NCBI GenBank assembly: GCA_963735035.1
Contig: CAVTJJ010000004.1
Coordinates: forward strand, 1,152,001 to 1,216,000
Reading direction: 5' to 3'
Source of the DNA: an uncultured candidate division Zixibacteria bacterium
Lineage (GTDB): Bacteria; Zixibacteria; MSB-5A5; GN15; FEB-12
DNA length: 64,000 nt
Positions 5,884 through 64,000 of this stretch are shown one piece after another. A program made the translations under genes and the position numbers. The notes beneath the pieces are model-generated. The model had not been told where the DNA came from. It saw only the letters and a program-made list of their open reading frames with translations, and made no database searches. Every line of letters begins with the position of its first letter. Within the stretch, counting starts at the first letter, position 1.

Positions 5884-5985
5884 GGCTTCCGGGCTTATAT
5901 TAGTTGGTGAAATATTTTGTCACTTACGTCGTCTGCAGACGTTAATAGGAGTAGTCGGATAACCTCCTCAGGTAAGGAACAACTG

Positions 5986-8794: not shown

Positions 8795-8912
8795 CCCTCC
8801 CTTCTTTTGTATTTCTCCACGGCCGGCCGACCCTCCTCGACCGGCCGTATATGTTTGTGCGGCAGCGAGTTCGCTGGCATCGTAAAATTCGACAAGAATT
8901 GTCTTAATTTGA

Positions 8913-8940
8913 TTGACAGGAGCGCCGATATCTGTATATT
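8913..8940 (+). promoter_or_regulatory. sigma70-type promoter of fur-feo operon
   Basis: TTGACA-16 nt-TATATT. Confidence 0.6.
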
Positions 8941-8948
8941 GGGCGTGT

Positions 8949-8969
8949 TGAAAATGAGTTTCGTTTTCA
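8949..8969. promoter_or_regulatory. Fur box
   Basis: TGAAAATGA-GTT-TCGTTTTCA inverted repeat; 13/19 match to GATAATGATAATCATTATC; just downstream of the -10 of fur-feoAB. Confidence 0.75.
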
Positions 8970-8983
8970 TTTAGACTTGCCAG

Positions 8984-9505
8984 ATGAAAACGAGTGAACG
9001 TCAAATCAGACGAGGCAGTACCATGCGCGAATTTCTCCGGACCAAAGGCTTTAAGATGACTCCCCAGCGGGAATTGATCTTCCGGTCGTTCTTCGAGATG
9101 AATCGCCACGTCTCGGTGGACGAGATTTACGACCGGGTCCGCCAGCAGGATGCGACGGTTGGTTATGCCACGGTCTGGCGCAACATGAAAGTCATTTGCG
9201 AAGTCGGGCTGGCGCAGGAAGTGAATGTCGGTGATGGAGTCACGCGCTATGACCGCGTAACCGGGGCGCCGCATGGGCATCTCTACTGTTTACACTGTCA
9301 TAGCCTGACTGAGTTCGACGCCGGCAAAGTGATGGAATTCTTATCGACGGTAGCAAATGAGAACGGCTTCTCAGCGGACGGATTCAAGGTCGAAATACAG
9401 GGATACTGTCCGACGTGCCGCGAAGCAATGACCAATGAAGATCAGTCGCTGGCAAGCAATGGTGTCAGGCAACCGACTTCGCCTCGGAAAGGGCGGCGAT
9501 CATGA
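8984..9505 (+). CDS. fur: Fur family transcriptional regulator
   Basis: MTPQRELI, ATVWRN, HGHLYCLHC and GYCPTC motifs; precedes feoAB; alternative start at 9023. Confidence 0.92.
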   Translation: MKTSERQIRRGSTMREFLRTKGFKMTPQRELIFRSFFEMNRHVSVDEIYDRVRQQDATVGYATVWRNMKVICEVGLAQEVNVGDGVTRYDRVTGAPHGHLYCLHCHSLTEFDAGKVMEFLSTVANENGFSADGFKVEIQGYCPTCREAMTNEDQSLASNGVRQPTSPRKGRRS

Positions 9506-9735
9506 CCTATCTCGACAAACTTCTCCCGGGGCAGAACGCCCGAGTAATCGGATACTCCACCGATGGACCGATTTGCCGTCGACTGGCGGAACTAGGTCTG
9601 ACCCCTGGACGTCAGATAAGATATCTTCGTAATGCGCCTTTGAGGGATCCGCTTCAGATTCAGATCGGCAGTGGCAGTCTCACGTTGCGTCACGCGCAGG
9701 CGGCGCTGGTGATGGTCGAAATAGAGGAGACGTAG
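9502..9735 (+). CDS. feoA: Ferrous iron transport protein A
   Basis: RRLAELGLTPG, APLRDP, LTLR motifs; 77 aa; ATGA overlap with fur. Confidence 0.93.
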   Translation: MTYLDKLLPGQNARVIGYSTDGPICRRLAELGLTPGRQIRYLRNAPLRDPLQIQIGSGSLTLRHAQAALVMVEIEET

Positions 9736-9757
9736 CCCGAGGCTGCGTTCCAACCCG

Positions 9758-47119: not shown

Positions 47120-48241
47120 TTAGCCTTCGATCATCTCGACATTGGCGCGTGGAACGATCGCTTCGGTGTTGTCATCGAACCTGACACCAAGAATACGAGC
47201 CTTCGACTCCGATTCCAGCTTCTGTAGCGGCGACGGGAGATCGGTGACCGTGCCCAAACGACCGAAGTGAGGGTGACGGATCACGCGGATCGGCGAACCG
47301 ATAACCAGTCCGCCCGGTTCCTGTTCGAGAGCATCCGGGGTAATGGCCACACCCGGGGTCGGGATGACCAGTTCCGGTCGAATAACGCCGGCGCGAATCT
47401 GAGTGGCGCCGTTGATGCAGGCCATCTCGCCTTCATGTCGTTTCAAGAGCTCAAACGTCTTGGCGGCCATGTTGATTTGGCCAAAACCTTCGGTGACTAC
47501 CAGCGTGGTCGCGGTGTCTTCGGAGCCGGTAATAGCAACGCCAATGTCATAGCCGAGAAAATCGCGCAGGTCCTTGTCGTCAAATCCGCCGACCACAATG
47601 CCTCGCACGTTGAGCTTGATTGCCTTGCGCAGGGCGCCCGCGGTAACCAGCGATCCGCCGACAATGACTTTACCGGTCATCGATTCGAGCACGAGGTTTT
47701 CGTCCAGAACGACCGTCGGGTCTTTGACTGCGATCTGTATCGGACCGTTCTTTTCGCCGCCGATGCCAAAAATCCCCTGCACGAAACTGGCCATGCACTG
47801 GACTTCGACCCCTTCGGACGGATACACCTGGGTGACCTCGCCCTTCAGATATGCTTTCACCTCGACCGGACTCGGCGCTCCGCGCTGCAGGACCTGGCCT
47901 GTAATCGAAGATATCGATTCGATCGTACCGTCGATAGTAGCGTTGCACTGGTTCTTGAAGATGAAAAGAGTCTTGGAAACCGCCATCAACTCGCCGGCCT
48001 TGATTCGGTCGCCCACTTTCTTGAGCATCACCATTTCGATGTCTTCCGGCGGAATGCCCAGCTTGTTGGCGACGTTTATCGGGACAACACTACCCGGCAG
48101 TTCGGTGCGGGCTACGACATCGTCGGGGTTGACTTGGTCGCCGACTTTTCGAAGGACGTTTCCCTTCAGTGGCAGTATTCTATGTTTTTTGACCAGGAGC
48201 TTTTCTTTGACTTTGAGACCCGGTGTATATGCGTGACCCAT
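47120..48241 (-). CDS. Hypothetical cytoplasmic protein with two barrel-sandwich-hybrid-like motifs and a C-terminal KOW/SH3-like domain
   Basis: KVGDQVNPDDVVA and KKVGDRIKAGELMA; central alpha/beta part VRGIVVGG; C-terminal IGSPIRVIRHPHFGRLGTV. Confidence 0.8.
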   Translation of the reverse strand: MGHAYTPGLKVKEKLLVKKHRILPLKGNVLRKVGDQVNPDDVVARTELPGSVVPINVANKLGIPPEDIEMVMLKKVGDRIKAGELMAVSKTLFIFKNQCNATIDGTIESISSITGQVLQRGAPSPVEVKAYLKGEVTQVYPSEGVEVQCMASFVQGIFGIGGEKNGPIQIAVKDPTVVLDENLVLESMTGKVIVGGSLVTAGALRKAIKLNVRGIVVGGFDDKDLRDFLGYDIGVAITGSEDTATTLVVTEGFGQINMAAKTFELLKRHEGEMACINGATQIRAGVIRPELVIPTPGVAITPDALEQEPGGLVIGSPIRVIRHPHFGRLGTVTDLPSPLQKLESESKARILGVRFDDNTEAIVPRANVEMIEG

Positions 48242-48244
48242 GGT

Positions 48245-49027
48245 TTAACCCTTTTGCGTGTTCGAGCTGTTAGCCTGTTGTCTCTTCTTCCTCAAGCGTA
48301 CTATCAAGACGAGGAGTATGATGAAGAGGGGCGTTCCGAATATGAGCGGATAGTTGAGGGAGCCTTCGGGCTTCTTTTCAATGTCTGCGACCTTTACCGG
48401 TTCGGCCGTGGTCGCATTCGGAAGCGGCTCGGTTGAGACCGACATAATCATCTCACGGTACAACGGAAGATTAGCTGCATACTTGAATGTGGGTGAATAA
48501 AAATAGAAGTTGGCGATACCCTGCTCGTAGAACGTCATGACCAGAAGATTGATCTTGGTTCCGGAACTGTCGCCGGGGACCTCTGATTCTACCGAAGCAC
48601 GCTTGCCCGCCCGGTCGAAGACGACCGAATCCTTGCAGTATGACCTCAGAAAGACATCGGAGGTGACTTCCTTGATGGGGCGCTTGAATTCCGTAGACAA
48701 GCTGCCGATGACCGAATCGATCTGGTGGGGGGCAAGATTGCCGACCGTATCGACTGTGAGGATGAGGTACTGATCCTCGAAAAGGACCATCGCATTCTTC
48801 TCACAGAAGACGGCCTCGAATTCGACTTTCTGGGCCGTATCGCCGCGTGACAGATAGAACTGGGCGGTGGTGTAATCGAGTTGAGTCCAGGTGTCGGGAT
48901 AAGTAAAATGAAACCGGCCGTTGTAGCTGACAAAAGTCTCGGCCGAGGCCGACACCGTCGCCAGGCACAGCGACAACACTACCAGACTCAGCATCAGTCC
49001 CAACCGTGTTAATCTGATCGAATACAT
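48245..49027 (-). CDS. Hypothetical exported protein with C-terminal TM anchor
   Basis: Signal peptide (ASA/ET), FHFTYPDTW, C-terminal TM followed by RLRKKR. Confidence 0.8.
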   Translation of the reverse strand: MYSIRLTRLGLMLSLVVLSLCLATVSASAETFVSYNGRFHFTYPDTWTQLDYTTAQFYLSRGDTAQKVEFEAVFCEKNAMVLFEDQYLILTVDTVGNLAPHQIDSVIGSLSTEFKRPIKEVTSDVFLRSYCKDSVVFDRAGKRASVESEVPGDSSGTKINLLVMTFYEQGIANFYFYSPTFKYAANLPLYREMIMSVSTEPLPNATTAEPVKVADIEKKPEGSLNYPLIFGTPLFIILLVLIVRLRKKRQQANSSNTQKG

Positions 49028-49039
49028 TTAGGTCACTCC

Positions 49040-50899
49040 CTATTTCTGATCCAGCACGCCGGTCGGATAGATGTCCAACTCGGTCATCCACTTCTTCAAT
49101 TGAGCCACGCGATCTTTTTCCGGCAGCGAGGAGAGGTCGAACGGGCGTCCGCGTCCGTCGAGAATGATTCCCACCACACCACCGTGCAGTTCGCGCTCAA
49201 CTTTGTTGCCGGGGCCGGCGCCGACATCGAACCCGCGTTCCGGTTCGAGCACCGCGCGGGCCATCTGAGGCAGGCCATTTTCCTGCAGCCCCAGCTTGAA
49301 CAGTCTCATATCGAGATAGTTCAACGTTCCACTGACAACGCCATCGGGCAGATGGATCTGATACTTCATTATCGGCCCCGGCTTCTTCATTGTCCCAACC
49401 GGAGCGACACAAGTGCCCAGATGAATCAGGCAATCCTTTTCGAATACTTCAGTGGCGGCGCGCGGTTGAACCTCGGTCAGCACACCCAGTTGCGGCATCA
49501 TGAAGATAGAATCCACCGCCAGTCGGGTGACGCCTTCCGGCATGAAAGCATCGATCAACATCAGGCCGGACTGTTGACGGCGCGGCGCGTGAGAGAGCAC
49601 GCCGCCCGAACCGATCAGCATGTCGAGCGTCATCATGTTGACGATCGTTCCACCGGAAGTTGACTGCTCGAAAGCATCGGCGATAGTGCGCTGCTGCTGG
49701 ACACCTTTGAGCACCGTGGCGAAATTCTTGTGCTGAATAAAGGCGAGACGCAGCGCTTCTTTGGCGATGGCCTGTTCGAAAATCAACTCTTCCATCGACT
49801 GCGGAATCGTGGTCGGACGGATCATCTTGTTCTTGACCCGGTTGCGCAGGTCGCGCTCGTTCATCTCGAACGGCACCCAGCGCATGACCATCGGAAGCGT
49901 CGCCTCGGCGAAAACATTCGAAATCGAGTAGGACATGCCCAGGTTGGCCGAGACCGTACGGTTGAAGACGCCGGTCTTGCCGTCCGGACGGAATACCGAG
50001 AAGACGTCAGTCGTAGCGCCGCCGATGTCCACACCCACCGCCTCGATGCCGTACTGGTCGGCGATGGTCTTGATAATCAAACCGACTGCGCCCGGAGTGG
50101 GCATGATCGGGGCGTCGGTCCATTCCATCAGCTTCTTGTAGCCGGGGGCCTGCGCCATGACGTGTTCCATGAAGAGCTCGTGGATTTCTTCGCGGGCCGG
50201 GCCGAGATTTTCCATTTCGAGAACCGGGCGAAGATTGTCGACCGTTCTGAGATCGACCTTGCTTGACAAAGTCTTCTTGACTGCCTCGGCGGCATCTTTG
50301 TTGCCGGCGTAGATAATCGGTAATTTGTATCCGGTGCCCAGGCGTGGCTTGGGATCGGCTGCGGAGACGAGTTCGGCGATTTCAACCACGTGGGTCGTGG
50401 TGCCGCCGTCGATACCGCCTGAAAGAAGGATCATGTCGGGGCGGAGGTGGCGGATGCGTTCGATCTGCTGATGGGGGAGACGCTTGTCATTCGAAGCGAT
50501 GACGTCCATGACGATCGCACCGGCGCCCAGAGCCGCCCGCTCGGCCGATTCGGCGGTCATCGAACGAACCACACCGGCGACCATCATTTGAAGACCGCCT
50601 CCGGCTGATGATGTTGAAATATAGACGTCAGTGCCGATTCCGCCCTTGGCCGGAGATATGAACCGGTTGTTCTCGTCGAGTAACTTGCGTCCCGCCAGCT
50701 CTTCAAGCTCTGCGACCGCATTCAGCACGCCCATGGTTACATCTTCAAACGGGGCTTCCACGGTCGTGGGTGCTTCGCCGCGGGAGATAAGACGGTATTC
50801 GCCGTTCACATACTCGATCAGAATCGCTTTGGTGGTGGTTGATCCGCAATCGGTGGCAACAATTACCTTGATGTCTTCTGGGTTGTCGAACTTAGCCAT
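49040..50899 (-). CDS. GlmL/MutL-like ('glutamate mutase L') ASKHA-fold ATPase, 619 aa
   Basis: TDCGSTTTK (phosphate 1), SSAGGGL, SGGIDGG, YAGN, MPTP, VDIGGATTDVFS (phosphate 2), RTVSANLG, IGSGGVLSH. Confidence 0.87.
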   Translation of the reverse strand: MAKFDNPEDIKVIVATDCGSTTTKAILIEYVNGEYRLISRGEAPTTVEAPFEDVTMGVLNAVAELEELAGRKLLDENNRFISPAKGGIGTDVYISTSSAGGGLQMMVAGVVRSMTAESAERAALGAGAIVMDVIASNDKRLPHQQIERIRHLRPDMILLSGGIDGGTTTHVVEIAELVSAADPKPRLGTGYKLPIIYAGNKDAAEAVKKTLSSKVDLRTVDNLRPVLEMENLGPAREEIHELFMEHVMAQAPGYKKLMEWTDAPIMPTPGAVGLIIKTIADQYGIEAVGVDIGGATTDVFSVFRPDGKTGVFNRTVSANLGMSYSISNVFAEATLPMVMRWVPFEMNERDLRNRVKNKMIRPTTIPQSMEELIFEQAIAKEALRLAFIQHKNFATVLKGVQQQRTIADAFEQSTSGGTIVNMMTLDMLIGSGGVLSHAPRRQQSGLMLIDAFMPEGVTRLAVDSIFMMPQLGVLTEVQPRAATEVFEKDCLIHLGTCVAPVGTMKKPGPIMKYQIHLPDGVVSGTLNYLDMRLFKLGLQENGLPQMARAVLEPERGFDVGAGPGNKVERELHGGVVGIILDGRGRPFDLSSLPEKDRVAQLKKWMTELDIYPTGVLDQK

Positions 50900-51394: not shown

Positions 51395-52636
51395 TTGAGT
51401 GACCGTCTCCGACATCCCTTGACCTTACTGGTTGTCCTCGTACTAGTCGCAGTCCTGCCAATCGGCGCGTTACTGGCTCAATCGCCTCAACCGAATACAT
51501 CGACCCAAACTGCATCGTCGAATCTCCCCGTTCTCCGTCCGATCGATAGTCTGATCGGGAGCGATCTACCCAACGACGATGGGGGTGAAGTCAGACTGCG
51601 CTGGGCGATTTCTCCCGATGATGTCAAAGGTGGGGTGGTCACCGGATATCGCGTTCTGAAAGCTGTCGATCCCGACAGTCCTTTTGTTGAAGTCGGCGAC
51701 GTGGCCTCGGGGACAACCCAATTTGACGGTGGTGACATCGAGAACGGCCGACCGTACTTCTTCAAAGTTCGGGTGATGGGATTAGCGACGGGCGAAAATG
51801 GTGTCGTCAATGAGATCTTCACCGATTCGAAAATTGCCGGCCCCGTTATTTCATCGGTGCAGTACTTTCACGTGGGTCGACTGAATGTTGCGGTTGTCAC
51901 CGCCCTGGTGATTTTCCTGATCATCTTCTGGATTCAACGCGCGCGTTCGGGGGCCAAGCTCTACATTCGCAAGATTGCCGGACTGGATGCGGTTGACGAA
52001 GCCATCGGTCGGGCCACCGAGATGGGCAAGAAGGTTATTTACGTACCGGGCATCGATGATATGGACAATCTCATGACCATTTCCTCGATGATCATCCTGG
52101 GTTACGTGGCCGAAATAACCGCCACCTACGATACGTATTTGGAAGTGCCTACCTGCAAATCGATGGTCATGGTGACGGCCAAGGAAGTGGTGAAAGAAGC
52201 CTATACGAAAGTGGGACGGTCCGATTCTTATCATCCCGACCAGGTGCACTATTTAACCGATGATCAATTCGGCTATGCGGCGGCCATTGACGGCATCGTG
52301 GTACGTCAGAAACCGGCTACCATGTTCTATATAGGGTCATTCTATGCAGAATCGCTGATTCTGGCCGAAATCGGCAACGCCGCCGGCGCCATTCAAATTG
52401 CAGGCACGGCCCAGGCCAGCCAATTGCCGTTTTTCGTGACGGCTTGTGACTATACTCTCATCGGCGAGGAGATGTTCGCCGCTTCAGCTTATCTCTCCAA
52501 AGAGCCGAGGCTTCTCGGTTCGCTCAAGGGACAGGACTACGCCAAGGCTCTGATCCTGGCGGCCATACTTGTCGGTCTGATTCTTGAATCCTTTCATCTC
52601 TGGGGTGGTTTCCACAGCCTCTTTACGGTGGTGTAG
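51395..52636 (+). CDS. Cassette 1 subunit A: signal peptide, FN3-like domain, TM, DUF6754-like domain, TM
   Basis: YIRKIAGLDAVDEAIGRATEMG, AESLILAE, QIAGT, PFFVTACDYTLIGEE, LGSLKGQD; paralogous to 54940 and 58641. Confidence 0.85.
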   Translation: MSDRLRHPLTLLVVLVLVAVLPIGALLAQSPQPNTSTQTASSNLPVLRPIDSLIGSDLPNDDGGEVRLRWAISPDDVKGGVVTGYRVLKAVDPDSPFVEVGDVASGTTQFDGGDIENGRPYFFKVRVMGLATGENGVVNEIFTDSKIAGPVISSVQYFHVGRLNVAVVTALVIFLIIFWIQRARSGAKLYIRKIAGLDAVDEAIGRATEMGKKVIYVPGIDDMDNLMTISSMIILGYVAEITATYDTYLEVPTCKSMVMVTAKEVVKEAYTKVGRSDSYHPDQVHYLTDDQFGYAAAIDGIVVRQKPATMFYIGSFYAESLILAEIGNAAGAIQIAGTAQASQLPFFVTACDYTLIGEEMFAASAYLSKEPRLLGSLKGQDYAKALILAAILVGLILESFHLWGGFHSLFTVV

Positions 52637-52638
52637 CA

Positions 52639-53289
52639 ATGCGTAGAACAGTACCCCTGATTATTACCGGAGTCGTAGGCATTGTATTCGTAGTCTCGTA
52701 TTTTTCGCCCCCCCTTACTATTCTCAACGACAAGTTTTCCGACTGGTTCTCGATCGTGGCGGCTTGTTCGATTGTATTGGGCTCGCTAAATCTGGTACTG
52801 ATTTCCACTCAGAAGGTCATTAGTCGCAGAGAAGATTGGTTCTACGCCGGTGTCATCATAGCTTGCTTCCTGGCGATGCTCATATCGGGTCTCTGGGCCG
52901 GCCGTGACTTCGGGGGTGGGAACACCGGAACCCCGTTCGAATGGCTCTATAACTATCTTTACAACCCGCTGTCGTCTACTATGTACGCGATCCTGGCCTT
53001 CTATGTGGCGTCAGCGTCGTACCGTGCGTTCCGCGCCCGTAACATCGAGGCTACCATGCTTCTGGTTGCCGCGTTTCTGGTTATGCTTGGTCGCGTTCCC
53101 ATTGGCGACGTTCTGACCGGATTCCTTCCCGAGGGCTCCCGGATGTCGGATCTGCAGCAATGGATCATGGATTATCCGCAGACGGCCGGACAACGCGCCA
53201 TCATGATCGGCATTGCGCTCGGTATCGTGTCGACCTCACTTCGCGTAATTCTCGGCGTTGAACGTTCCCACCTTGGGGGAGGCGACTAA
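52639..53289 (+). CDS. Cassette 1 subunit B: about 6-TM membrane protein
   Basis: LAFYVASASYRAFRARN and AGQRAIMIGIALG...LRVILGVER shared with 56215 and 60255. Confidence 0.85.
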   Translation: MRRTVPLIITGVVGIVFVVSYFSPPLTILNDKFSDWFSIVAACSIVLGSLNLVLISTQKVISRREDWFYAGVIIACFLAMLISGLWAGRDFGGGNTGTPFEWLYNYLYNPLSSTMYAILAFYVASASYRAFRARNIEATMLLVAAFLVMLGRVPIGDVLTGFLPEGSRMSDLQQWIMDYPQTAGQRAIMIGIALGIVSTSLRVILGVERSHLGGGD

Positions 53290-53292
53290 GCC

Positions 53293-54315
53293 ATGAACCG
53301 CAAGGCAATCGAAATAGCGGTGTTGCTGACAGGCTTGATCTTCTGTATCGTCGCGTACATCGGCAAAGAGAGTATCCTCGGGTGGCATAAAGGGTATGTC
53401 TTTTCGTATACGACTTCGGTCATAATAATCCTGCTAATCATGCTCTCTCTGCTCTGGATTCTTATTCGGACCATTCAGGACAAGCCGGTCGGCCGCCGGA
53501 TTGTCTTTCTTTACGTTGGCATCGCCATCACTCTCCCGCTGTTTATGTCGTACGATCAGAAGATCGTAGTGACCGAGAGTACTCAGCAGGTTTACGACGC
53601 TGTTCAGGCGCTTCCGGCCGGGGCGAAAGTCCTGGTATCTTTCGACTACGATCCAGCGTCGTCGCCGGAACTTCAGCCGATGGCGGAAGCGTTTCTGGCC
53701 GAGTGCTTCAAACGTCATTTGAAAGTTATAATGGTGGCCCTCTGGGCGCCGGGCGCACTCCAGGCCAACATTGCTATCGACACGGTCAAGGTTAGACTTG
53801 GCCTTGATTCTACTCAGTTGGTTTACGGTGTGGATTATTGTAACCTGGGTTACCAGGCAGGACGTGAATTCGTGATCGCGCGCATGGGGACCAGTTTTGA
53901 GGCGATGTTTGGTAAGGATGTTCGGGGTACGCCGTATCGCGAGATTCCTCTGGTCAGAAACGTAAGAAATTTCTCCGATATCGACTATTCGTTCAATATC
54001 TCGGCCGGTTTCCCCGGAACCGTGGAATGGGTTCAGGTGGCGGTAACTCGTTTTGCCCTGAAACTCGGTGCCGGCAGCACAGCCGTGCAGGCGCCGCAAG
54101 TCTACCCTTACCTGAGGGGGGGACAGTTACTCGGTCTCCTGGCCGGCATGAACGGCGCTGCTGAATTCGAGAAGCTGGTCGGACTCAAAGCCGAAGCTAC
54201 TACGTACATGCTGGCGCAAACCTTCGCTCACGTCATCGTGATCGCCTTTATCATCATCGGCAACGTGGCCTTCTTCCGAAGTGGGCGCAAGTCGGCTAAG
54301 GGAGGGGCGAAGTAA
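53293..54315 (+). CDS. Cassette 1 subunit C: membrane-anchored alpha/beta-domain protein
   Basis: SFDYDP...ELQPM, GVDY.NLGY, YPY, GAAEFE, QTFAHVIVIAFIIIGN; two extra N-terminal TMs. Confidence 0.85.
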   Translation: MNRKAIEIAVLLTGLIFCIVAYIGKESILGWHKGYVFSYTTSVIIILLIMLSLLWILIRTIQDKPVGRRIVFLYVGIAITLPLFMSYDQKIVVTESTQQVYDAVQALPAGAKVLVSFDYDPASSPELQPMAEAFLAECFKRHLKVIMVALWAPGALQANIAIDTVKVRLGLDSTQLVYGVDYCNLGYQAGREFVIARMGTSFEAMFGKDVRGTPYREIPLVRNVRNFSDIDYSFNISAGFPGTVEWVQVAVTRFALKLGAGSTAVQAPQVYPYLRGGQLLGLLAGMNGAAEFEKLVGLKAEATTYMLAQTFAHVIVIAFIIIGNVAFFRSGRKSAKGGAK

Positions 54316-54316
54316 C

Positions 54317-54940
54317 ATGGATCATCTCGGACTCTGGGTAGCAGGCTTATTGACGCTCGGAATTTACTCATTCTTGTATCGTGACAACCCGTGGTACAAG
54401 TTCTCGGAGGCGGTGTTTGTCGGGATCTCAGCCGGATACTGGGTCGTCTACGAATTCTGGAACAATTTTGTCAACAAGTTCTGGGATGGAAGGAATCAGG
54501 ATCCCTGGCTCTGGGTAGGCGCCATTCTTGGTCTGATGATGCTCATGCGGCTGGTTCCTAAGATCGGTTGGATTTCCCGCTGGCCGCTCGCGTTTATCAT
54601 CGGTGCAACCTCGGGACTCTGGCTCATGCTCTATCTTACGACCAACTGCATGTCGCAGGTGGAAGCGACTATTTTCCCGTTGTTTGGCATTCAAAATGAA
54701 GCTTCAATGATCACGATCTTCAGCAGCATCGTACTCATTGTCGGTACGGTCAGCGGCGTCATATATTTCTTCTTCTCCAAAGCTCACACCGGTGCGTTCG
54801 GGGCGACTGCGCGGGTAGGCATATGGACGATCATGATTACGTTCGGAGCGATGTTCGCGCTGACAATCATGAATCGTATGTCGCTTCTGATCGGCCGCAC
54901 TTCGTTCATTTTTGGCCAGTGGCTGGGGCTAATCAAGTAA
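54317..54940 (+). CDS. Cassette 1 subunit D: about 6-TM membrane protein
   Basis: SFLYRDNPWYKFSE, ISRWPLAF, FFFSKAHTG, MITFGA. Confidence 0.85.
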   Translation: MDHLGLWVAGLLTLGIYSFLYRDNPWYKFSEAVFVGISAGYWVVYEFWNNFVNKFWDGRNQDPWLWVGAILGLMMLMRLVPKIGWISRWPLAFIIGATSGLWLMLYLTTNCMSQVEATIFPLFGIQNEASMITIFSSIVLIVGTVSGVIYFFFSKAHTGAFGATARVGIWTIMITFGAMFALTIMNRMSLLIGRTSFIFGQWLGLIK

Positions 54941-56211
54941 TGGCATGTCGGCGAGGCACTCAGGGTGGTGGAGCTCGCAGCCCGTACAATAAATTCTGTC
55001 TTCTGGTTCTGCTTTCAATCTTCGCGTTCGTAGTCGGTGTCACAGCTCAAGAACAATCAGCCGGCATGGTGATCGAGAAGGAGACCGGCGCCGAGGCACC
55101 CGCTCCGGTCACTTCACTCATTGCCGAAGACTTCAAATACGACGACGGCGAAAACCTGGCCCTCACCTGGATACCGTCAATAGATGACCGGCCCGGCTCG
55201 GACCGTGTGACCGGGTACCAGGTTTACCAGATCGCCAACAGCGGCCCGCCCGTCAAGATCGCCGAGCTATTGCCGGGCGCGAATTCCTACCGCGCCCAGA
55301 ATCTGTTTCGCGATACAGTCTATCAATTCAATGTCAAGACGTTGGCGGAGGGGGCTTCCACAGAATCCGTTCGCACGGAAGCCATTTCGCCCCGGCGTGA
55401 GTGGATCGACTGGAACCTCTGGAACCTGATGCTGATCACCCTCGTGATAGCGGGCGCCATTCTGGTATTCATCGAAACCGCCAAGAGAGGGAAGAAGCTG
55501 TTCGTGCGAAGGATCGCCGGGCTCGAAGCTGTAGACGAGGCCATCGGACGCGCCACCGAGATGGGGCGGCCGATCCTCTTCATACCCGGCATTCAGGACA
55601 TGGATGATGTCCAGACTCTCGCCGCTCTGACAATCCTGGGCCGGGTGGCCGAGCATGTCGCAACTTACGACATCAAGCTTCGGATGCCGGTATCCCGGTC
55701 GCTGGTGATGACTGCCGCGCGCGAGACGATTAAGACCAGCTTCTCCGCGGCCGGACGTCCCGACGCCTATAACGAAGATATGGTCAGCTACGTGACCGAC
55801 GAGCAGTTCGGATACGTGGCGGCGGTGAGTGGCATCATGGTGCGTGAGAAACCGGCCACCGTGTTTCTGCTCGGCGCGTTCATGGCGGAGTCTTTGATTC
55901 TGGCCGAGACCGGCAATTCGGTCGGTGCGATTCAGATCGCGGGCACCGCTCGCCCGGCTCAGCTCCCGTTCTTTGTAGCCGCCTGCGACTTCACACTGAT
56001 CGGCGAAGAATTGTTTGCGGCATCGGCGTACTTGTCCGGCGAACCGCGGGCGCTGGGTTCACTCAAAGGTCAGGATGTCGGCAAGGCAATCGGCATGGCC
56101 GCGATTGTTCTCGGCACGGCCGCGGTCACACTGTATGCCATGACCGATGCGGTCTGGCTCAAGACTGTGGCGGACTGGTTCCAGGCATTCTTCACGGTGG
56201 CATCGGATTAG
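54940..56211 (+). CDS. Cassette 2 subunit A: FN3-like plus DUF6754-like membrane protein
   Basis: Start overlaps previous stop (TAATG); RRIAGLEAVDEAIGRATEMG, LGSLKGQD. Confidence 0.85.
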   Translation: MACRRGTQGGGARSPYNKFCLLVLLSIFAFVVGVTAQEQSAGMVIEKETGAEAPAPVTSLIAEDFKYDDGENLALTWIPSIDDRPGSDRVTGYQVYQIANSGPPVKIAELLPGANSYRAQNLFRDTVYQFNVKTLAEGASTESVRTEAISPRREWIDWNLWNLMLITLVIAGAILVFIETAKRGKKLFVRRIAGLEAVDEAIGRATEMGRPILFIPGIQDMDDVQTLAALTILGRVAEHVATYDIKLRMPVSRSLVMTAARETIKTSFSAAGRPDAYNEDMVSYVTDEQFGYVAAVSGIMVREKPATVFLLGAFMAESLILAETGNSVGAIQIAGTARPAQLPFFVAACDFTLIGEELFAASAYLSGEPRALGSLKGQDVGKAIGMAAIVLGTAAVTLYAMTDAVWLKTVADWFQAFFTVASD

Positions 56212-56214
56212 ACT

Positions 56215-56895
56215 ATGAGACGCGAGATCCCGCTGGCCATAACCATTTTCGTCGGACTACTGGCGATTGTCTCATTCTTCAGTCCTCCCATGGAAGGTCT
56301 GGGCGAAGATTTCACGCTGTTCTTTGATATCATTGCCGTCTTCGCGTTCTTCCTCGGTGGTGGCAATCTCGTTCGCATACATGCCGACAAGTTGATTCGG
56401 AGAAAGAAAGAGTGGGGCTACTCGGTAGTCACGCTGGTCGGCTTCCTGGGGATGCTGGCCGCGGGTCTATTCAAGATCGGCAATCCGGGAGACATATCAA
56501 CTTCGGTAACAGCCCCCGGCTCTTTGTTCGCCACCCTCTATTTCAATTTGAATTTACCGCTGGGAGCGACCATGTACGCACTGCTGGCGTTCTATGTGGC
56601 CTCGGCGTCGTATCGGGCGTTTCGCGCTAAGAATCGTGAAGCCACTGTGCTGCTGGTAGCAGCGTTTGTCATATTGCTCGGCAGCACGCCGTTTGGCACG
56701 ATGCTCACTTCCTGGATACCGTCATCATTCAGTTGGCTGCAGATTCCGAATATGGCGGTCTGGATTATGAGCTCGCCCAACCTGGCCGGACAGCGGGCTA
56801 TCATGATCGGTATCGGTCTCGGTGTAGTGTCGATGTCACTGCGTCTAATTCTAGGCATTGAGCGCACTTATCTTGGAGGGGACGAACGTGGGTGA
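56215..56895 (+). CDS. Cassette 2 subunit B: about 6-TM membrane protein
   Basis: LAFYVASASYRAFRAKN, PNLAGQRAIMIG...LGIERTYLG. Confidence 0.85.
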   Translation: MRREIPLAITIFVGLLAIVSFFSPPMEGLGEDFTLFFDIIAVFAFFLGGGNLVRIHADKLIRRKKEWGYSVVTLVGFLGMLAAGLFKIGNPGDISTSVTAPGSLFATLYFNLNLPLGATMYALLAFYVASASYRAFRAKNREATVLLVAAFVILLGSTPFGTMLTSWIPSSFSWLQIPNMAVWIMSSPNLAGQRAIMIGIGLGVVSMSLRLILGIERTYLGGDERG

Positions 56896-57805
56896 TTACC
56901 GCGTCATAATTGTCCTGCTCCTGATTGGTGGGGGACTGGTCTGGCTGTTGGTGCGGGCGCTGCGCGGCAAGGAAGTTGACCGCCGGTTGGTGTTCGCGTT
57001 CATTTTCATCTCTGTAGCAGCCCCGCTGCTTCTAACGATTACGTTCGAGATGAAACCGACCCCGGTAGTCAAGGCGCTCTATGACCGGATCGATACTCTT
57101 CCGCCAGGATCACGCATTCTCCTGTCGTACGATTTTGATCCGCCCATGGCCCCCGAAGTACAACCCATGGCCGATGTGGTCAGCCGCCATTGTCTGGCGC
57201 GGGGACATAAAGTAGTCTTTATGACACTCTGGGCGACTGGGCAGGCGCAGTTTCTCGCGACCCTTCAGGATGTGATTCGCCCCGACTTCCCCGATATGAA
57301 GGATGGCGTCGACTACGTTGATCTCGGCTACAAGGCCGGCAACGAGGGTGTGCTGAACGTCATCCGCACCGATTTCAAGAAGATGTTTCCGACCGATGTC
57401 AACACGGTGCCGTGGGACAGCATTCCCATTCTCGACGGGATTCGATCCTGCTCCGATTTTGATTTGATCGTCTCGCTGGGCGGCGGCAAGCCGGGTGTCA
57501 AAGAATGGGTCCTGTTCGTGGGTGATCCGTGCGGCGTTCCGACCGCCGGTGGCGTGGCGGCAGTGGTGGCCCCGATGCTCTACCCATACTATCCGACCCA
57601 GATGTGTGGTCTGCTCGGTGGAATCAAGGGAGCGGCCGAATACGAGAATTATCTGCGTGACAATTATCCGCGTTTCGCCAAAATGAAAACTCCGGCGATG
57701 GTCATGATGGGGCCTCAGACTGTGGCGCACGTAGTAATCCTGGCTTTCATTGTCATTGGTAATGTTCTTTTCTTCGTCCAGCGTCGCAAAGAGGTGAAAC
57801 GATGA
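56888..57805 (+). CDS. Cassette 2 subunit C: membrane-anchored alpha/beta-domain protein
   Basis: GTG after GGAGGG; SYDFDP...EVQPM, GVDYVDLGY, YPYY, GAAEYE, QTVAH...IGN. Confidence 0.85.
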   Translation: MGDYRVIIVLLLIGGGLVWLLVRALRGKEVDRRLVFAFIFISVAAPLLLTITFEMKPTPVVKALYDRIDTLPPGSRILLSYDFDPPMAPEVQPMADVVSRHCLARGHKVVFMTLWATGQAQFLATLQDVIRPDFPDMKDGVDYVDLGYKAGNEGVLNVIRTDFKKMFPTDVNTVPWDSIPILDGIRSCSDFDLIVSLGGGKPGVKEWVLFVGDPCGVPTAGGVAAVVAPMLYPYYPTQMCGLLGGIKGAAEYENYLRDNYPRFAKMKTPAMVMMGPQTVAHVVILAFIVIGNVLFFVQRRKEVKR

Positions 57806-58635
57806 GCCGCCTGAGTATCATTGTCCTCGCGGCGGTCTGCCTGCTCTTTGCGGTGAGCTGGGTGGTTAGAGCGGGTGTGACCGAAGGCGACACGGCGGTG
57901 CGCGATGCGTTTCTCGTGACCCTGTCGGCCTTTATGACCCTCGCGATCATGTCGTTCATGTACAAGGACAATCCGTATTACAAATTCGCCGAGCACCTGT
58001 TCGTGGGGATTTCGGCCGCCTACTGGATGTGTGTCGGGTTCTGGTCAACGATTGTTGGCAACCTGGTCCCGCGGGTGTCCGAGAGTCTGTCGGCCTTCTT
58101 CAGAGTGCCGTACTCAGGTGGCGGGCTGGATTTCGGTGCGATCTACCTGCCGTATCGCTATTTCTACATGATCCCGGTCATCCTGGGGATCTTGTTACTG
58201 ATGCGCCTGGTGCCGAAGGCGGGCTGGCTCTCGCGCTGGCCACTGGCGTTCATCGTCGGCACGTTTGCCGGTCTTAATTTGATACGGTATCTCCAGTCAG
58301 ATTTTGTCAATCAGATCTCCGCGACATTCATACCGCTGGTTACCGACTGGCATGGGTTCGGAGCCTTCTTCTCAGGATTGTCACTATCGTTTGACGGCCA
58401 ACTGGTCGCTATTTTGACGAACCTCGTGATTTTTCTTGGTGTATTTTGCGGATTGATATATTTCTATTTCTCGAAGGAACATACTGGATGGTTCGGAAAT
58501 GCGTCGCGCTTTGGTATCTGGATTCTCATGATCACTTTCGGCGCGTCTTTCGGCTATACGGTTATGGGACGCATATCGCTCCTGGTGGGGCGGCTGACGT
58601 TTCTGTTCCAGGACTGGTTAGGAATTAGAGGCTAA
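57802..58635 (+). CDS. Cassette 2 subunit D: multi-TM membrane protein
   Basis: SFMYKDNPYYKFAEHLFVG, LSRWPLAF, FSKEHTG, MITFGASFG. Confidence 0.85.
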   Translation: MSRLSIIVLAAVCLLFAVSWVVRAGVTEGDTAVRDAFLVTLSAFMTLAIMSFMYKDNPYYKFAEHLFVGISAAYWMCVGFWSTIVGNLVPRVSESLSAFFRVPYSGGGLDFGAIYLPYRYFYMIPVILGILLLMRLVPKAGWLSRWPLAFIVGTFAGLNLIRYLQSDFVNQISATFIPLVTDWHGFGAFFSGLSLSFDGQLVAILTNLVIFLGVFCGLIYFYFSKEHTGWFGNASRFGIWILMITFGASFGYTVMGRISLLVGRLTFLFQDWLGIRG

Positions 58636-58640
58636 ATCAT

Positions 58641-60242
58641 ATGTCCTTGGTGAAAGGTCGCCAGATGAGACACAAACTCAGACTTGCGATTGTCCTGATG
58701 CTGGGCCTCGGGTCGGTCGCGGTCGCACAGACCGATCCGGCAACGGCGGGTTCGGCTGCGGTCGTACAGCCGGGAGCCGAGGTTCGAGCCGTCTCGCCCC
58801 CTGCCCCGATAACCAACCTGCAGGCAGTCGACAAGAAGGATGACCATGGTCACGCTATCACGTTGACCTGGACGAAATCGGCTGACGACGGCGCAGGCGC
58901 CAACTCGGTTATCTCGTACGAAATCCAGCGCTGGTTTCCGTTCCAGATGGACGTAGTCGAGTCGCTGCGTAAAGATTTGGCGGCCACACGGGACGCCGTC
59001 AGAGCCTTCCGAATCGATCTGCCTCGGGCGGAGCGGGCGCTCGAAGAACTCCGCGAGGATCCGGGCAAGCTGAATACGATTCGATTTCAGGTAGCCAGAC
59101 CACCTGATACGAGCTTCAAACCAACGGTCGACTATGCGATCAAGAAGCTCGAAGATACTATCGGGTATATGCGCGACAATCGGCCGCTCCTGATGAGTCG
59201 GATAAAGCCAATGCAGCAGGATCTTGACAAGGCGCTTGATCGTCTGCCTGAGGCACATGTCGCTTATCCCAAAGACGGGGAATGGCGATCGGTAGGGAAG
59301 GCCCTGGTGGGAGCCACCAGCTTTGACAACGTCGGTTCTAAAGATAATTTGTCGGCCGACTACTTTCCCGACTATACCGATCTGTACTACCGGGTACAGG
59401 CTGCCACGGCCGATGCGTCGGTAAAGTCGGTCGCGGTCACGGTTGGTCCGATCCAGAGCCGGGGGCAGTGGATTCACATGGGCAAGCTCCCGGTGCTCGG
59501 TTTCGTGCTGCTGTTCTTTGTTCTCACCGTGACTTTTGTACAGAAGGCGAAGAGTGGGGCGGATCTTTACGTCAGACCACTGGCAGGAATTGAGGCTGTC
59601 GACGACGCCATCGGTCGCGCCACCGAGATGGGACGCCCCATACTCTACTTGCTCGGGATCGGGACTGCCACCGATGTATCCACTATCGCGTCGTTCTCGA
59701 TTCTGGGACGGGTTTCCAAGCGGGTGGCTGAATACCAGACACCGATTATTGTCCCCTGTTATGACCCGATCGTGATGGCGGTAGCTCAGGAAGTGGTTAA
59801 GTCATCGTATCTGGACGCCGCCCGGGCGGATGATTACAGGCAGGATTCGGTGTTCTTCGTTACGAACTATCAGTTCGCCTATGTGGCGGCGGTCAACGGC
59901 ATTATGCTTCGCGAGCGCCCCGCTACCAATATATACATGGGCAAATTCATGGCTGAGTCCTTGCTTCTGGCCGAGACCGGAACGCTGGCCGGGTCGATTC
60001 AGATCGCGGGCACCGATGAAATCGCTCAAATTCCATTCTTCATCGTGTCGTGTGACTATACCCTGATTGGTGAAGAACTCTACGCTGCGTCGGCGTATCT
60101 CGGCCGGGAGCCGGTGTTGCTCGGTTCGCTCAAGGCCCAGGACTGGGCCAAGGCCGTCGTGATGTTGATTGCCGTTATCGGGATGATCGGTACCGCTCTC
60201 GGCTGGGCCGATTTCGCACATTGGTTCCAGGTAACGGAGTAG
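58641..60242 (+). CDS. Cassette 3 subunit A: FN3-like domain with helical insert plus DUF6754-like domain
   Basis: RPLAGIEAVDDAIGRATEMG, LGSLKAQD; alternative start 58665. Confidence 0.85.
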   Translation: MSLVKGRQMRHKLRLAIVLMLGLGSVAVAQTDPATAGSAAVVQPGAEVRAVSPPAPITNLQAVDKKDDHGHAITLTWTKSADDGAGANSVISYEIQRWFPFQMDVVESLRKDLAATRDAVRAFRIDLPRAERALEELREDPGKLNTIRFQVARPPDTSFKPTVDYAIKKLEDTIGYMRDNRPLLMSRIKPMQQDLDKALDRLPEAHVAYPKDGEWRSVGKALVGATSFDNVGSKDNLSADYFPDYTDLYYRVQAATADASVKSVAVTVGPIQSRGQWIHMGKLPVLGFVLLFFVLTVTFVQKAKSGADLYVRPLAGIEAVDDAIGRATEMGRPILYLLGIGTATDVSTIASFSILGRVSKRVAEYQTPIIVPCYDPIVMAVAQEVVKSSYLDAARADDYRQDSVFFVTNYQFAYVAAVNGIMLRERPATNIYMGKFMAESLLLAETGTLAGSIQIAGTDEIAQIPFFIVSCDYTLIGEELYAASAYLGREPVLLGSLKAQDWAKAVVMLIAVIGMIGTALGWADFAHWFQVTE

Positions 60243-60254
60243 GAGGTAAACTGA

Positions 60255-61070
60255 ATGAAACAACAAGTGCCACGTCTAATAGTACTCGTATTTGGAGCGT
60301 TCCTCCTATTTCAATTCTTTGTTCCCCATGAATCGTCTGAGTGGATCTACGAATTCCTGCTCGATTGGACCATCATCATAGGTGTGTTCGCGCTTGCGGT
60401 AGGTATCTGGTCGATCTTCAACGTTCACGTCGAGAAGATTCGGACCAAGAAATTCGGCTGGAAGTACTCATACGTAACGCTGACCGGATTCGTTGCTATG
60501 GTGCTGTTCGGCATGACCAGCCAGAACGGTCAGGAATGGGGCTGGTTCTTTCCGTTCATAGCCGCGGCGATCCTGACGGTACTTATGATTGTGCAGGCCA
60601 GTGCCTCCAAGGGGAACGCCGGACCGTTTATCGGTGCCGCCTTGCTGTTCGTCGTCGCAGCGGCGGTCATTGCCTGGAGAGACAATACCTGGAGTTTCTA
60701 CTTCCAGACGCCGGTGCCGCTCCAATCCTTCATGTTCCGGAGGATGTTTGATAACGTTCTGATTTCGCTTCACGCCACGACGTTTTCGCTGCTGGCGTTC
60801 TTCATAGCGTCGGCGGCGTACCGATCTTTCCGGGCCCGCAACGTTATGGCCAGTCTGTTGCTCATCGCGGCGCTGGTAGTGATGTCCCGGTTCAACCCGT
60901 ATCTCGAACCACTCTTCGGCGAGAAAGTAAATCGGCTGTCGAACTGGCTGATGAACGTCCCCAACCTGGCGGCTCAGAGAGCGGTCATCATGGGGATCGG
61001 GCTGGGTATGGTGGCGACAGCGCTCAAGGTGGTGCTGGGTATTGAACGCAACTATATGGGCAAAGGATAA
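60255..61070 (+). CDS. Cassette 3 subunit B: membrane protein with two extra TMs
   Basis: LAFFIASAAYRSFRARN, PNLAAQRAVIMG...LGIERNYMG; AGGAGG RBS. Confidence 0.85.
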   Translation: MKQQVPRLIVLVFGAFLLFQFFVPHESSEWIYEFLLDWTIIIGVFALAVGIWSIFNVHVEKIRTKKFGWKYSYVTLTGFVAMVLFGMTSQNGQEWGWFFPFIAAAILTVLMIVQASASKGNAGPFIGAALLFVVAAAVIAWRDNTWSFYFQTPVPLQSFMFRRMFDNVLISLHATTFSLLAFFIASAAYRSFRARNVMASLLLIAALVVMSRFNPYLEPLFGEKVNRLSNWLMNVPNLAAQRAVIMGIGLGMVATALKVVLGIERNYMGKG

Positions 61071-61081
61071 GGAGTCCGGTC

Positions 61082-61969
61082 ATGAATATATTCGATAGAT
61101 TGATGCAGCTTGACCGGCGTTGGGTGTTCCTCTTTCTGGCGATTGTGTGTGTAATCGCCTACGCTTCCCAATTTGAGGTGCCCATTCTGGTTGAGCCCGA
61201 AGTGAAGGCTATTTTCACGTTCATCGATACCTTGCCCAAGGGGTCGGTGGTGTTTGTTCCAATGGATTACGATCCCGGCTCGATGGCGGAGCTGCATCCC
61301 ATGACTTATGCCATTGTCGAGCAATGCTGGCGCAAAGAGTTGAAGGTACTGATTACAGCGTTATCTCAGAACGGACCCGGCATGGCCGATCAGGCCATTC
61401 GGGAAATCGTCGACTCGCTGAAAATGCCCCGTACATACAATGGTGTGTCCTACCCGGCGCGGGAAATTGTCAACGGTGTTGACTACGTCTTCCTGGGCTA
61501 CAAGCCGTATCCGGCCATTGTTATCCTTGGCATGGGGCAGAATTTCCGCTTGCCGTTCCCGCTTGATTATTACGGGACGCCAATCGATTCGCTTCCAATG
61601 ATGCGAACGATTCAGAACTACAATGACATCGCCTGTGCGATCAATATCTCGGGCACGAACGCCACCGACTATTGGATATCGTACGGTCAGGGCAAGTTCG
61701 GATTCCCGCTGGCGATAGGTGTCACCGGCGTTTCGACGGCCCAGTATTATCCCTACTATGGCTCGCGGCAGATCTTCGGCATCATGGGTGGAATGCTGGG
61801 CGCGGCGGAGTATGAGGATCTATCCGATAATCCGGGCAACGCCAAGGATGCCATGCGCGTGCAGCTTTCGGCGCATCTGGTCATTATCGCCTTTGTCGTT
61901 ATGGGCAACATCGCGTACTTCGTGACCTTGCGAAAACGGAAACGCGGTCAAACGGAAGGAAGGAGGTAA
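61082..61969 (+). CDS. Cassette 3 subunit C: membrane-anchored alpha/beta-domain protein
   Basis: MDYDP...ELHPM, GVDYVFLGY, YPYY, GAAEYE, QLSAH...MGN, RKRKR tail. Confidence 0.85.
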   Translation: MNIFDRLMQLDRRWVFLFLAIVCVIAYASQFEVPILVEPEVKAIFTFIDTLPKGSVVFVPMDYDPGSMAELHPMTYAIVEQCWRKELKVLITALSQNGPGMADQAIREIVDSLKMPRTYNGVSYPAREIVNGVDYVFLGYKPYPAIVILGMGQNFRLPFPLDYYGTPIDSLPMMRTIQNYNDIACAINISGTNATDYWISYGQGKFGFPLAIGVTGVSTAQYYPYYGSRQIFGIMGGMLGAAEYEDLSDNPGNAKDAMRVQLSAHLVIIAFVVMGNIAYFVTLRKRKRGQTEGRR

Positions 61970-61973
61970 CGCC

Positions 61974-62807
61974 GTGGATTACACGACTTTCCTGTGGACA
62001 ACTGCCGGAGCCTTCCTGACGCTCTGCATCTTCTCGTTCTTGTACAAAGACAATCCTTTCTATAAGTTCGCCGAACATCTCTTCGCTGGACTCTCGGCCG
62101 GGTACTTCGCCATGATTCTATGGCACAACGGCCTGATTCCCAAGCTGATGTATGATCGCTTGGACGATGGCAACTGGTATTTCCTCTGGCTGGATTCGTC
62201 CAAGCCCTGGTTCCTGATTCCGGCGCTGCTAGGGGTTCTGATGTGGACCCGCTTCTCGCAGAAATACCAGTGGATATCGCGGTTCCCGCTCGCGATGTAT
62301 ATCGGCATCGGCGCCGGCATGGCGATACCTCTGGAGATGCGCGCCCGAGTGAACGAACAATTGTCGGCCATGATGCGCACGGCTCCATGGAATCAAGCTT
62401 ATTGGGACCACTTCTTCGGTAACGGCGGGTTCAACCTGCTTGACACGATGTCCGGTCTCTCGCAGTTGATCGTCTTCATAGGCGCCATCTGTGCTCTGGT
62501 GTACTTCTTCTTCTCGAAGGCCCATACCGGGGTCGTTGGGGGCATGGCCAAGTTCGGTATCTGGATATTGATGATCGGTTTTGGTGCGTCATTCGGTTTC
62601 ACCGTGATGGCGCGTGTATCGTTGTTCATCAACCGGATGCAGTTCCTTGACCAGCGGTGGATCAAGACCGCGACTGCTGAGGCCGCGCCATGGTGGTACC
62701 TGGGGATTCTACTCCTCGTGGTGACGGTGGCTGTGGTCTACGCGGTCTGGGAGATTGTTGCCTTCATGGGTCGCAAGAAGAACGCGGGCGCCAATCAAGC
62801 CGGCTGA
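61974..62807 (+). CDS. Cassette 3 subunit D: multi-TM membrane protein
   Basis: SFLYKDNPFYKFAEHLFAG, ISRFPLAM, FFFSKAHTG, MIGFGASFG; extra C-terminal TM. Confidence 0.85.
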   Translation: MDYTTFLWTTAGAFLTLCIFSFLYKDNPFYKFAEHLFAGLSAGYFAMILWHNGLIPKLMYDRLDDGNWYFLWLDSSKPWFLIPALLGVLMWTRFSQKYQWISRFPLAMYIGIGAGMAIPLEMRARVNEQLSAMMRTAPWNQAYWDHFFGNGGFNLLDTMSGLSQLIVFIGAICALVYFFFSKAHTGVVGGMAKFGIWILMIGFGASFGFTVMARVSLFINRMQFLDQRWIKTATAEAAPWWYLGILLLVVTVAVVYAVWEIVAFMGRKKNAGANQAG

Positions 62808-62833: not shown

Positions 62834-62870
62834 GAAACCCTGCCTTTTCAGAGGCGGGGTTTCTTTTTTT
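62834..62870 (+). terminator. Rho-independent terminator closing the 12-gene operon
   Basis: GAAACCCTGCCT...AGGCGGGGTTTC followed by T7. Confidence 0.85.
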
Positions 62871-63632: not shown

Positions 63633-63715
63633 TTGCATTTCGGCCCGATCGCCTGTTACTTGCCGAAGCTAAATTGTGAATATAGCATGAGTTAGTGATA
63701 TTTACAGGGGGCGCT

Positions 63716-64000
63716 ATGGCGACACCTAAATCTACCGCGACTAAGGAAAAAACGCCGCGGAAAGTGAAAACTGAGACCAAAGGCAAGGATAAGGCCGAAA
63801 ATATGGTCACCGGAAAGAAATACTACTACTTCTTCGGCGGCGGCAAAGCCGAAGGCAACTCCGAGATGCGCGATCTTCTTGGCGGCAAAGGAGCCGGTCT
63901 CGCGGAGATGACCAATGCAGGTATCCCGGTTCCGCCGGGATTTACGATTACCACCGAAGTGTGTGCCGTCTACTACGATCACGGCATGAACCTTCCCAAA
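63716..64000 (+). CDS. ppdK: Pyruvate, phosphate dikinase, 5' part (runs off the window; absent from ORF track)
   Basis: Open frame MATPKST...[14 protein letters not shown]...[30 protein letters not shown]. Confidence 0.93.

Follow-up and report, generated by a model that had tools for sequence, protein, structure and literature searches.

What kind of membrane system is encoded by twelve genes that repeat one four-gene set three times, and are its four subunits mirror-image relatives of one another? The question is raised by positions 51395-62807 of a 64,000-nucleotide stretch of DNA from an uncultured candidate division Zixibacteria bacterium (GenBank assembly GCA_963735035.1, contig CAVTJJ010000004.1, positions 1,152,001 to 1,216,000, forward strand), which is called the window below. 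A first-pass annotation had proposed that the subunits, named A to D in gene order, form two pairs of inverted topology, A with C and B with D. We find that the proposed orientations hold as predictions and that kinship within the pairs is not demonstrable. The reading we favour, at a probability of about 0.5, is that the locus is one operon carrying three old, diverged copies of a two-sided, four-protein inner-membrane module, whose pairs are not demonstrable duplicates and whose copies share one ATPase pair.

The twelve genes form a single operon: they lie on the same strand with junctions of -4 to +13 nucleotides, including overlaps of 1 and 4 nucleotides, and one strong terminator follows 3' of D3, no comparable site being found inside the operon. 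They make up three diverged copies of the set A-B-C-D, copies 2 and 3 sharing with copy 1, respectively, 44 and 43% identity in A, 52 and 33% in B, 38 and 36% in C and 46 and 40% in D. Two starts lie inside longer open reading frames (ORFs): the ATG of D1 at 54317 is 1 nucleotide past the C1 stop, with GGGAGG ahead of it, in an ORF that begins at GTG 54281, and the ATG of A2 at 54940 overlaps the D1 stop by 1 nucleotide, in an ORF that begins at 54823. The start of C2 is uncertain, because its ORF shares 38 nucleotides with B2. The operon reads as follows (N-in and N-out denote a predicted N terminus inside or outside the cytoplasm; TM, transmembrane):

51395..52636, plus strand: A1, 413 amino acids; signal peptide, exported FN3 domain, TM helix, predicted cytoplasmic DUF6754 alpha/beta domain, C-terminal TM helix.
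52639..53289, plus strand: B1, 216 amino acids; membrane protein with six helices, predicted N-in, in no Pfam or NCBIfam family.
53293..54315, plus strand: C1, 340 amino acids; two extra N-terminal helices, anchor helix, predicted periplasmic Rossmann-like domain, C-terminal TM helix, basic tail.
54317..54940, plus strand: D1, 207 amino acids from ATG 54317; membrane protein with six helices, predicted N-out.
54940..56211, plus strand: A2, 423 amino acids from ATG 54940; PF20539 at E 5.1e-121, fn3 at E 4.4e-4.
56215..56895, plus strand: B2, 226 amino acids; 52% identical to B1.
56858..57805, plus strand: C2, 315 amino acids; start uncertain.
57802..58635, plus strand: D2, 277 amino acids; extra N-terminal signal-anchor helix, ATG overlapping the C2 stop by 4 nucleotides.
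58641..60242, plus strand: A3, 533 amino acids; PF20539 at E 2.4e-111, insertion of ~110 amino acids in the exported part.
60255..61070, plus strand: B3, 271 amino acids; hydrophobic insertion in the loop that joins helices 3 and 4.
61082..61969, plus strand: C3, 295 amino acids; third copy of C.
61974..62807, plus strand: D3, 277 amino acids; extra C-terminal helix and basic tail RKKN.
62834..62863, plus strand: terminator-like hairpin of the strong intrinsic type, a 13-bp stem followed by TTTTTTT, ending the twelve-gene operon.

On which sides of the membrane do the four proteins lie? We counted lysine plus arginine (K+R) per loop in every homologue, with the helices fixed on the alignment. 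The DUF6754 domain of A is predicted to be cytoplasmic in 94 of 94 homologues, its flanks carrying 6.69 K+R versus 0.85 and 0.90 at the outer ends. For C the domain is placed outside and the termini inside in 69 of 70 homologues, with one tie (mean K+R of 2.81 on the N-terminal side, 4.03 in the C-terminal tail and 3.09 at the domain flanks). B is predicted N-in throughout (92/92), its N terminus, loop 2-3, loop 4-5 and C terminus summing to 10.25 K+R versus 2.51. D is predicted N-out in 42 of 61 homologues, with 6.49 K+R in the loops after TM1, TM3 and TM5 versus 5.05, a charge signal that is weak when taken alone. The motifs from which the first-pass annotation had read these orientations by eye are also in place: RARSGAKLYIRK past the A1 membrane helix, GRR or DRR ahead of the anchor in C1, C2 and C3, and RRKEVKR and RKRKR at the ends of C2 and C3.

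Further indications on D came from natural variants. An extra N-terminal signal-anchor is found in 7 of the 61 D proteins, D2 included, and an extra C-terminal helix in two, D3 with its basic tail and the D protein of locus L047 (1 K+R on each side). Among 150 diverse representatives of the C family, P0211 and P0223 are natural C-D fusions (598 amino acids) in which the last helix of C, predicted to end inside, is joined to the first helix of D by a single strong extra helix and ~45 amino acids of linker. Such fusions serve as a built-in topology reporter and as evidence that C and D act together. Since the extra anchors and the fusions both fit an N-out D, the orientations proposed in the first-pass annotation appear to be right as predictions: across homologues, the domains of A and C are predicted to face opposite compartments, and B and D to be inserted in opposite orientations. 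Opposite orientation of two six-helix proteins is close to a coin-flip a priori and therefore says little by itself. On predicted topology, the module is a two-sided heteromeric membrane unit.

What are the soluble domains on its two faces? A1, A2 and A3 match the Pfam family DUF6754 (PF20539) at 384.2, 403.1 and 371.4 bits (E 1e-111 to 1e-121), where the gathering score is 27 bits, and carry ahead of it, in the exported N-terminal part, an FN3 domain, a beta-sandwich. No Pfam or NCBIfam family matched B, C or D. AlphaFold2 models built on our own alignments were confident for A1 (pLDDT 91.4) and C2 (pLDDT 93.4), and residues 195-399 of A1 and 69-314 of C2 are modelled with a common order of elements: a TM helix, an alpha0 helix, six beta-alpha units and a long C-terminal TM helix. 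In these models, A and C truly share an unusual layout, in which a Rossmann-like domain sits between two membrane helices. In profile searches of the PDB, A matched FN3 only, and no match was returned for B, C, D or P373 (a neighbouring protein described below). Fold searches with full-length A1 were filled by FN3 matches and are therefore uninformative on the DUF6754 domain, and the ESM Atlas gave no usable match for C or for an A protein that lacks FN3. PADLOC returned no defence family. A match of A to the Nir2 C-terminal domain (Foldseek E 3.4e-6) was unusable, at a root-mean-square deviation of 26 and a TM-score of 0.22, and a HAD-like reading of the acidic motifs past strand 1 in A and C was dropped, the acidic residues of A not being invariant. 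In a complex prediction with A (155-413), B, C (60-340) and D (13-219), the score with C as partner was 0.52; two controls with the partner replaced gave 0.00 each, and a control with A replaced gave 0.66.

Some family members are much larger. Some A proteins (P0001, P0004, P0005, P0025, P0081 and the one at 4983-7370 of locus L006) span 795-1040 amino acids, with several FN3 domains and PF25059 before DUF6754; across the A family the exported part is highly variable and the cytoplasmic domain nearly constant. Many C proteins, among them the representatives P0149, P0222, P0168, P0151 and others, carry large insertions, of up to ~550 amino acids, at profile positions ~110-118. This single insertion spot suggests that added exported domains are tolerated at one place in the predicted periplasmic domain.

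Are the oppositely oriented partners related by descent? The first-pass annotation had taken them for paralogues in the manner of NqrD/E, RnfA/E and small multidrug resistance (SMR) transporters, a claim for which profile-profile comparison returned membrane-helix matches only. For A and C, hhalign gave probabilities of 0.68% (3 paralogues), 3.5% (96 and 73 sequences) and 1.9% (209 and 195 sequences), and each time nothing aligned but one membrane helix and the basic residues after it. Compared alone (0.7%), the domains of A and C scored 17.5 locally and 3.7 globally; ten circular shifts of C scored 17.5-18.1 and 1.2-4.7. A deeper search with A gave close relatives only and left the alignment diversity unchanged, at an effective sequence number (Neff) of 3.2. 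The C-terminal tails of A and C, which had been described as ending alike, scored 17.7-18.1 (11-12%), and the A tail scored much the same against unrelated helices, 16.9-17.2 with B and 17.5 with D. B and D fared no better: profiles of 3 sequences each gave 0.23%, those of 92 and 62 sequences gave 0.41%, and every pairing of their hairpins stayed at or below 4%.

A three-fold hairpin repeat with GxxxG motifs had also been claimed for D. Hairpins 1 and 2 match at 42.7% over 26 columns, whereas both comparisons with hairpin 3 gave ~1%. Four glycines (G48, G108, G112 and G189) are invariant, and a fifth, G193, is almost so; the GxxxG motif is found in TM4 and TM6, while in TM2 only its first glycine (G48) is invariant, the second being a consensus residue. 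The three-hairpin repeat is weakly supported by these profile comparisons.

Could descent nonetheless lie behind the arrangement? One explanation holds that A/C and B/D are duplicates of dual-topology ancestors, forming a heterotetramer whose two-fold axis lies in the plane of the membrane, and that sequence similarity has since been erased. The opposite orientation of both pairs, the identical order of elements in the A and C models, the weak hairpin repeat in D, and the likeness of B and D (both of ~210 amino acids, with six helices and basic loops alternating in opposite register) would all fit it. Against it stand the hhalign values, which for A and C reflect TM helices only, the domain-only global score lying within the range of the circular shifts, and a tail motif that equals unrelated helices. 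Moreover, six-strand beta-alpha domains are very common, and the established inverted pairs NqrD/E, RnfA/E and SMR are recognisable by sequence. For NqrD/E, inverted topology and a most likely origin by gene duplication are stated in PMC10643135. We regard such duplication as unlikely. As judged from the profiles, A/C and B/D are best read as unrelated or diverged beyond recognition, with no demonstrable inverted duplicates; nothing beyond the layout speaks positively for mirror-image paralogues.

How widespread is the module? A scan of species-representative genomes gave at least 627 relatives of A among at least 630 pattern matches, from which 73 distinct loci were kept. These loci, from metagenome-assembled genomes, include Zixibacteria, WOR-3, Poribacteria, Eisenbacteria, Fermentibacteria, Latescibacteria, Cloacimonadota and others, and the A-B-C-D order is retained in fetched loci from many phyla, often in tandem arrays. 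All 81 genomes sampled from the window's phylum carried DUF6754, with 2-6 matches each, and 0 of 14 control genomes did. The genome of the window has five modules, the three described here and two lone ones, whose A proteins (292 and 299 amino acids) have no FN3 domain. The A family comprises at least 7999 clusters at 90% identity (E 1e-10 or better), and the C family 5464 representatives of 50%-identity clusters (E 0.001 or better). A full-text literature search for DUF6754 and PF20539 found no mention.

What could drive the module? Divergently upstream of A1 lie the genes of a GlmL-like protein and of its partner P373, with another gene between them, and past the operon the window closes on the start of another gene:

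47120..48241, minus strand: P373, 373 amino acids, highly conserved; barrel-sandwich hybrid domain at the N terminus; partner of the GlmL-like gene.
48245-49027, minus strand: 260-amino-acid protein between the GlmL-like gene and P373; signal peptide and C-terminal membrane anchor.
49040..50899, minus strand, divergent from A1: GlmL/MutL-like actin-fold (ASKHA) ATPase, 619 amino acids; PF13941 at E 5.9e-128 and 427.9 bits.
63695-64000, plus strand: start of a gene that by eye we take to be pyruvate phosphate dikinase, running past the window end.

GlmL is the methylaspartate mutase accessory protein. The ATPase passes PF13941 and falls below the NCBIfam equivalog cut-offs for GlmL (237 versus 475 bits for NF040745, 170.7 versus 204 for TIGR01319), and is therefore a relative of the GlmL family, not GlmL itself; its gene is the sole copy in its own genome. 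P373 likewise has one copy there, and within the phylum 80 of 81 genomes have it as a single copy. Its weak domain matches (16 members) are to Biotin_lipoyl in 11, RnfC_N in 7, and NQRA_N and Peptidase_M23 in 4 each. The 260-amino-acid protein has a weak PsbP-like match below the cut-off (E 4e-4) and was found in 6 of 76 loci. When flanking ORFs of these 76 loci were clustered, the GlmL-like gene was found in 24, P373 in 21 and a small protein, t133, in 10, counts that are limited by the many contigs ending early. In loci L043, L049, L055, L056, L065 and L070, from several phyla, t133, the GlmL-like gene, P373 and A-B-C-D follow one another in this order, all co-directional, with t133 at the head. 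A literature search on GlmL or ASKHA proteins in connection with membranes found nothing relevant.

Two further arrangements involve these neighbours. In L042 (Coatesbacteria, 8510-11021), A-B-C-D is followed by t133 and the GlmL-like gene, and beyond these come a second D and C, inverted on the opposite strand; the ATPase genes can therefore have modules on both sides. The t133 homologue of the window's own genome (G000:C3:357196-357525, locus L081, E 2.2e-21) is on another contig, apart from the cluster.

How might the parts work together? A would expose FN3 outside and hold its very conserved Rossmann-like DUF6754 domain inside, between two membrane helices, and C would hold a different Rossmann-like domain outside, likewise with a helix on each side of it. 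The membrane core would consist of the six-helix proteins B (N-in) and D (N-out), with a probable role in translocation or transduction; C may be the periplasmic binding or gating domain of this core, and A may couple it to the cytoplasm. The 2-6 modules of a genome would then use one GlmL-like ATPase with P373, like one energising unit serving several substrate-specific units. Indeed, the presence of several units and one ATPase pair per genome suggests substrate-specific units with a common motor.

Several observations weigh against the reading of three two-sided modules with a shared ATPase pair. (i) The GlmL-like gene and P373 adjoin the module in only about one third of the fetched loci. 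(ii) Their co-occurrence within the phylum is uninformative, because module and P373 are both nearly universal there. (iii) The charge bias of D is weak, 10 of the 61 homologues pointing the opposite way and 9 being tied, and the C-terminal tail of D carries 2.64 K+R on its predicted outer side. (iv) In the models, the identical element order and TM-domain-TM layout of A and C could be a trace of ancestry invisible to sequence methods.

Is the module instead a machine of the cell envelope, and no solute transporter? The exported FN3 part of A and the periplasmic domain of C might handle a polymer or surface protein for assembly or anchoring, with the actin-fold ATPase driving the process from the cytoplasm. 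Consistent with such a role, the exported FN3 part differs in length from copy to copy, A3 has a large insertion there, relatives of 940-1040 amino acids bear several FN3 or other exported domains, and the module is universal in the phylum. However, two of the five modules in the genome have an A protein without FN3, so that FN3 is not essential. GT-B fold matches were equalled by matches to RCK, SDR and sirtuin folds, and no conserved envelope gene was seen among the neighbours in the 76 loci. An envelope function of this kind thus seems improbable to us. Fainter still is the prospect of a new modular class of transporter or relay, built as an inverted-duplicate heterotetramer with matching Rossmann-like domains on each face and with a GlmL-like motor in place of an ABC or P-loop ATPase.

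Redox chemistry was weighed as well. Against PF02508 (Rnf-Nqr), none of B1-3 and D1-3 gave an hmmscan row at E up to 1. In six-frame searches, an Rnf-Nqr gene was found in 0 of 21 genomes (the window's own and 20 relatives, 17 of them at least 90% complete), with matches in 4 of 14 controls. No cysteine column reaches 30% conservation in B (92 sequences), and the best conserved ones in D reach 34% and 41% (61 sequences); as none attains 30% in B or 50% in D, the two proteins have no Fe-S site of the NqrD/E type. A distant analogue of the Rnf/Nqr redox ion pumps, with B/D as NqrD/E, C as NqrC/RnfG and P373 as NqrA/RnfC, is thus very improbable: although the P373 N terminus weakly matches RnfC_N (best E 3.1e-4) and NQRA_N (best E 1.1e-3), B and D have the helix number and opposite orientation described for NqrD/E in PMC10643135, and the niche may be free since the searched genomes lack Rnf-Nqr genes, neither B nor D matches PF02508, the cysteines are missing, no subunit belongs to a flavin, Fe-S or NAD family of Pfam or NCBIfam, the barrel-sandwich hybrid domain is a common one, as the Biotin_lipoyl and Peptidase_M23 matches of P373 illustrate, and five copies per genome are unlike a respiratory pump.

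A common four-protein membrane unit tied to an actin-fold ATPase would point to a wide gap in the knowledge of bacterial membranes. The new element is a map of four-subunit topology that draws on family-wide charge statistics and natural fusions. This map provides a concrete framework for structural work and poses a testable question, whether two-sided pairs arose by ancient duplication.

How does the module compare with known systems? It has the A-B-C-D gene set of the Pfam DUF6754 (PF20539) proteins, a family that is only catalogued, and it matches no characterised system. SMR transporters of the EmrE type are proteins of ~110 amino acids with four helices, whose partners are clearly homologous and take their orientation from K/R bias. 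B and D resemble them in the idea of oppositely inserted partners and differ in their ~210 amino acids, six helices and lack of similarity between partners. Closer in architecture is Nqr, for which PMC10643135 describes two oppositely oriented six-helix subunits together with two anchored domains, one in the periplasm and one in the cytoplasm, and derives NqrD and NqrE, of inverted topology, most likely from gene duplication. By prediction, B and D share with NqrD/NqrE, and with RnfA/RnfE, the pairing of two six-helix subunits in opposite orientation; they are unlike both in having no PF02508 match, no detectable mutual kinship and no conserved cysteines. Modular transporters with a shared energising unit, such as group II energy-coupling factor (ECF) transporters, offer a possible analogy of another kind. 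The module differs from them in lacking an ABC ATPase and any family of S or T components, its candidate motor being a GlmL-like actin-fold protein; in both, several membrane units would share one energising unit, here the 2-6 DUF6754 matches of a genome and one copy of a putative ATPase pair.

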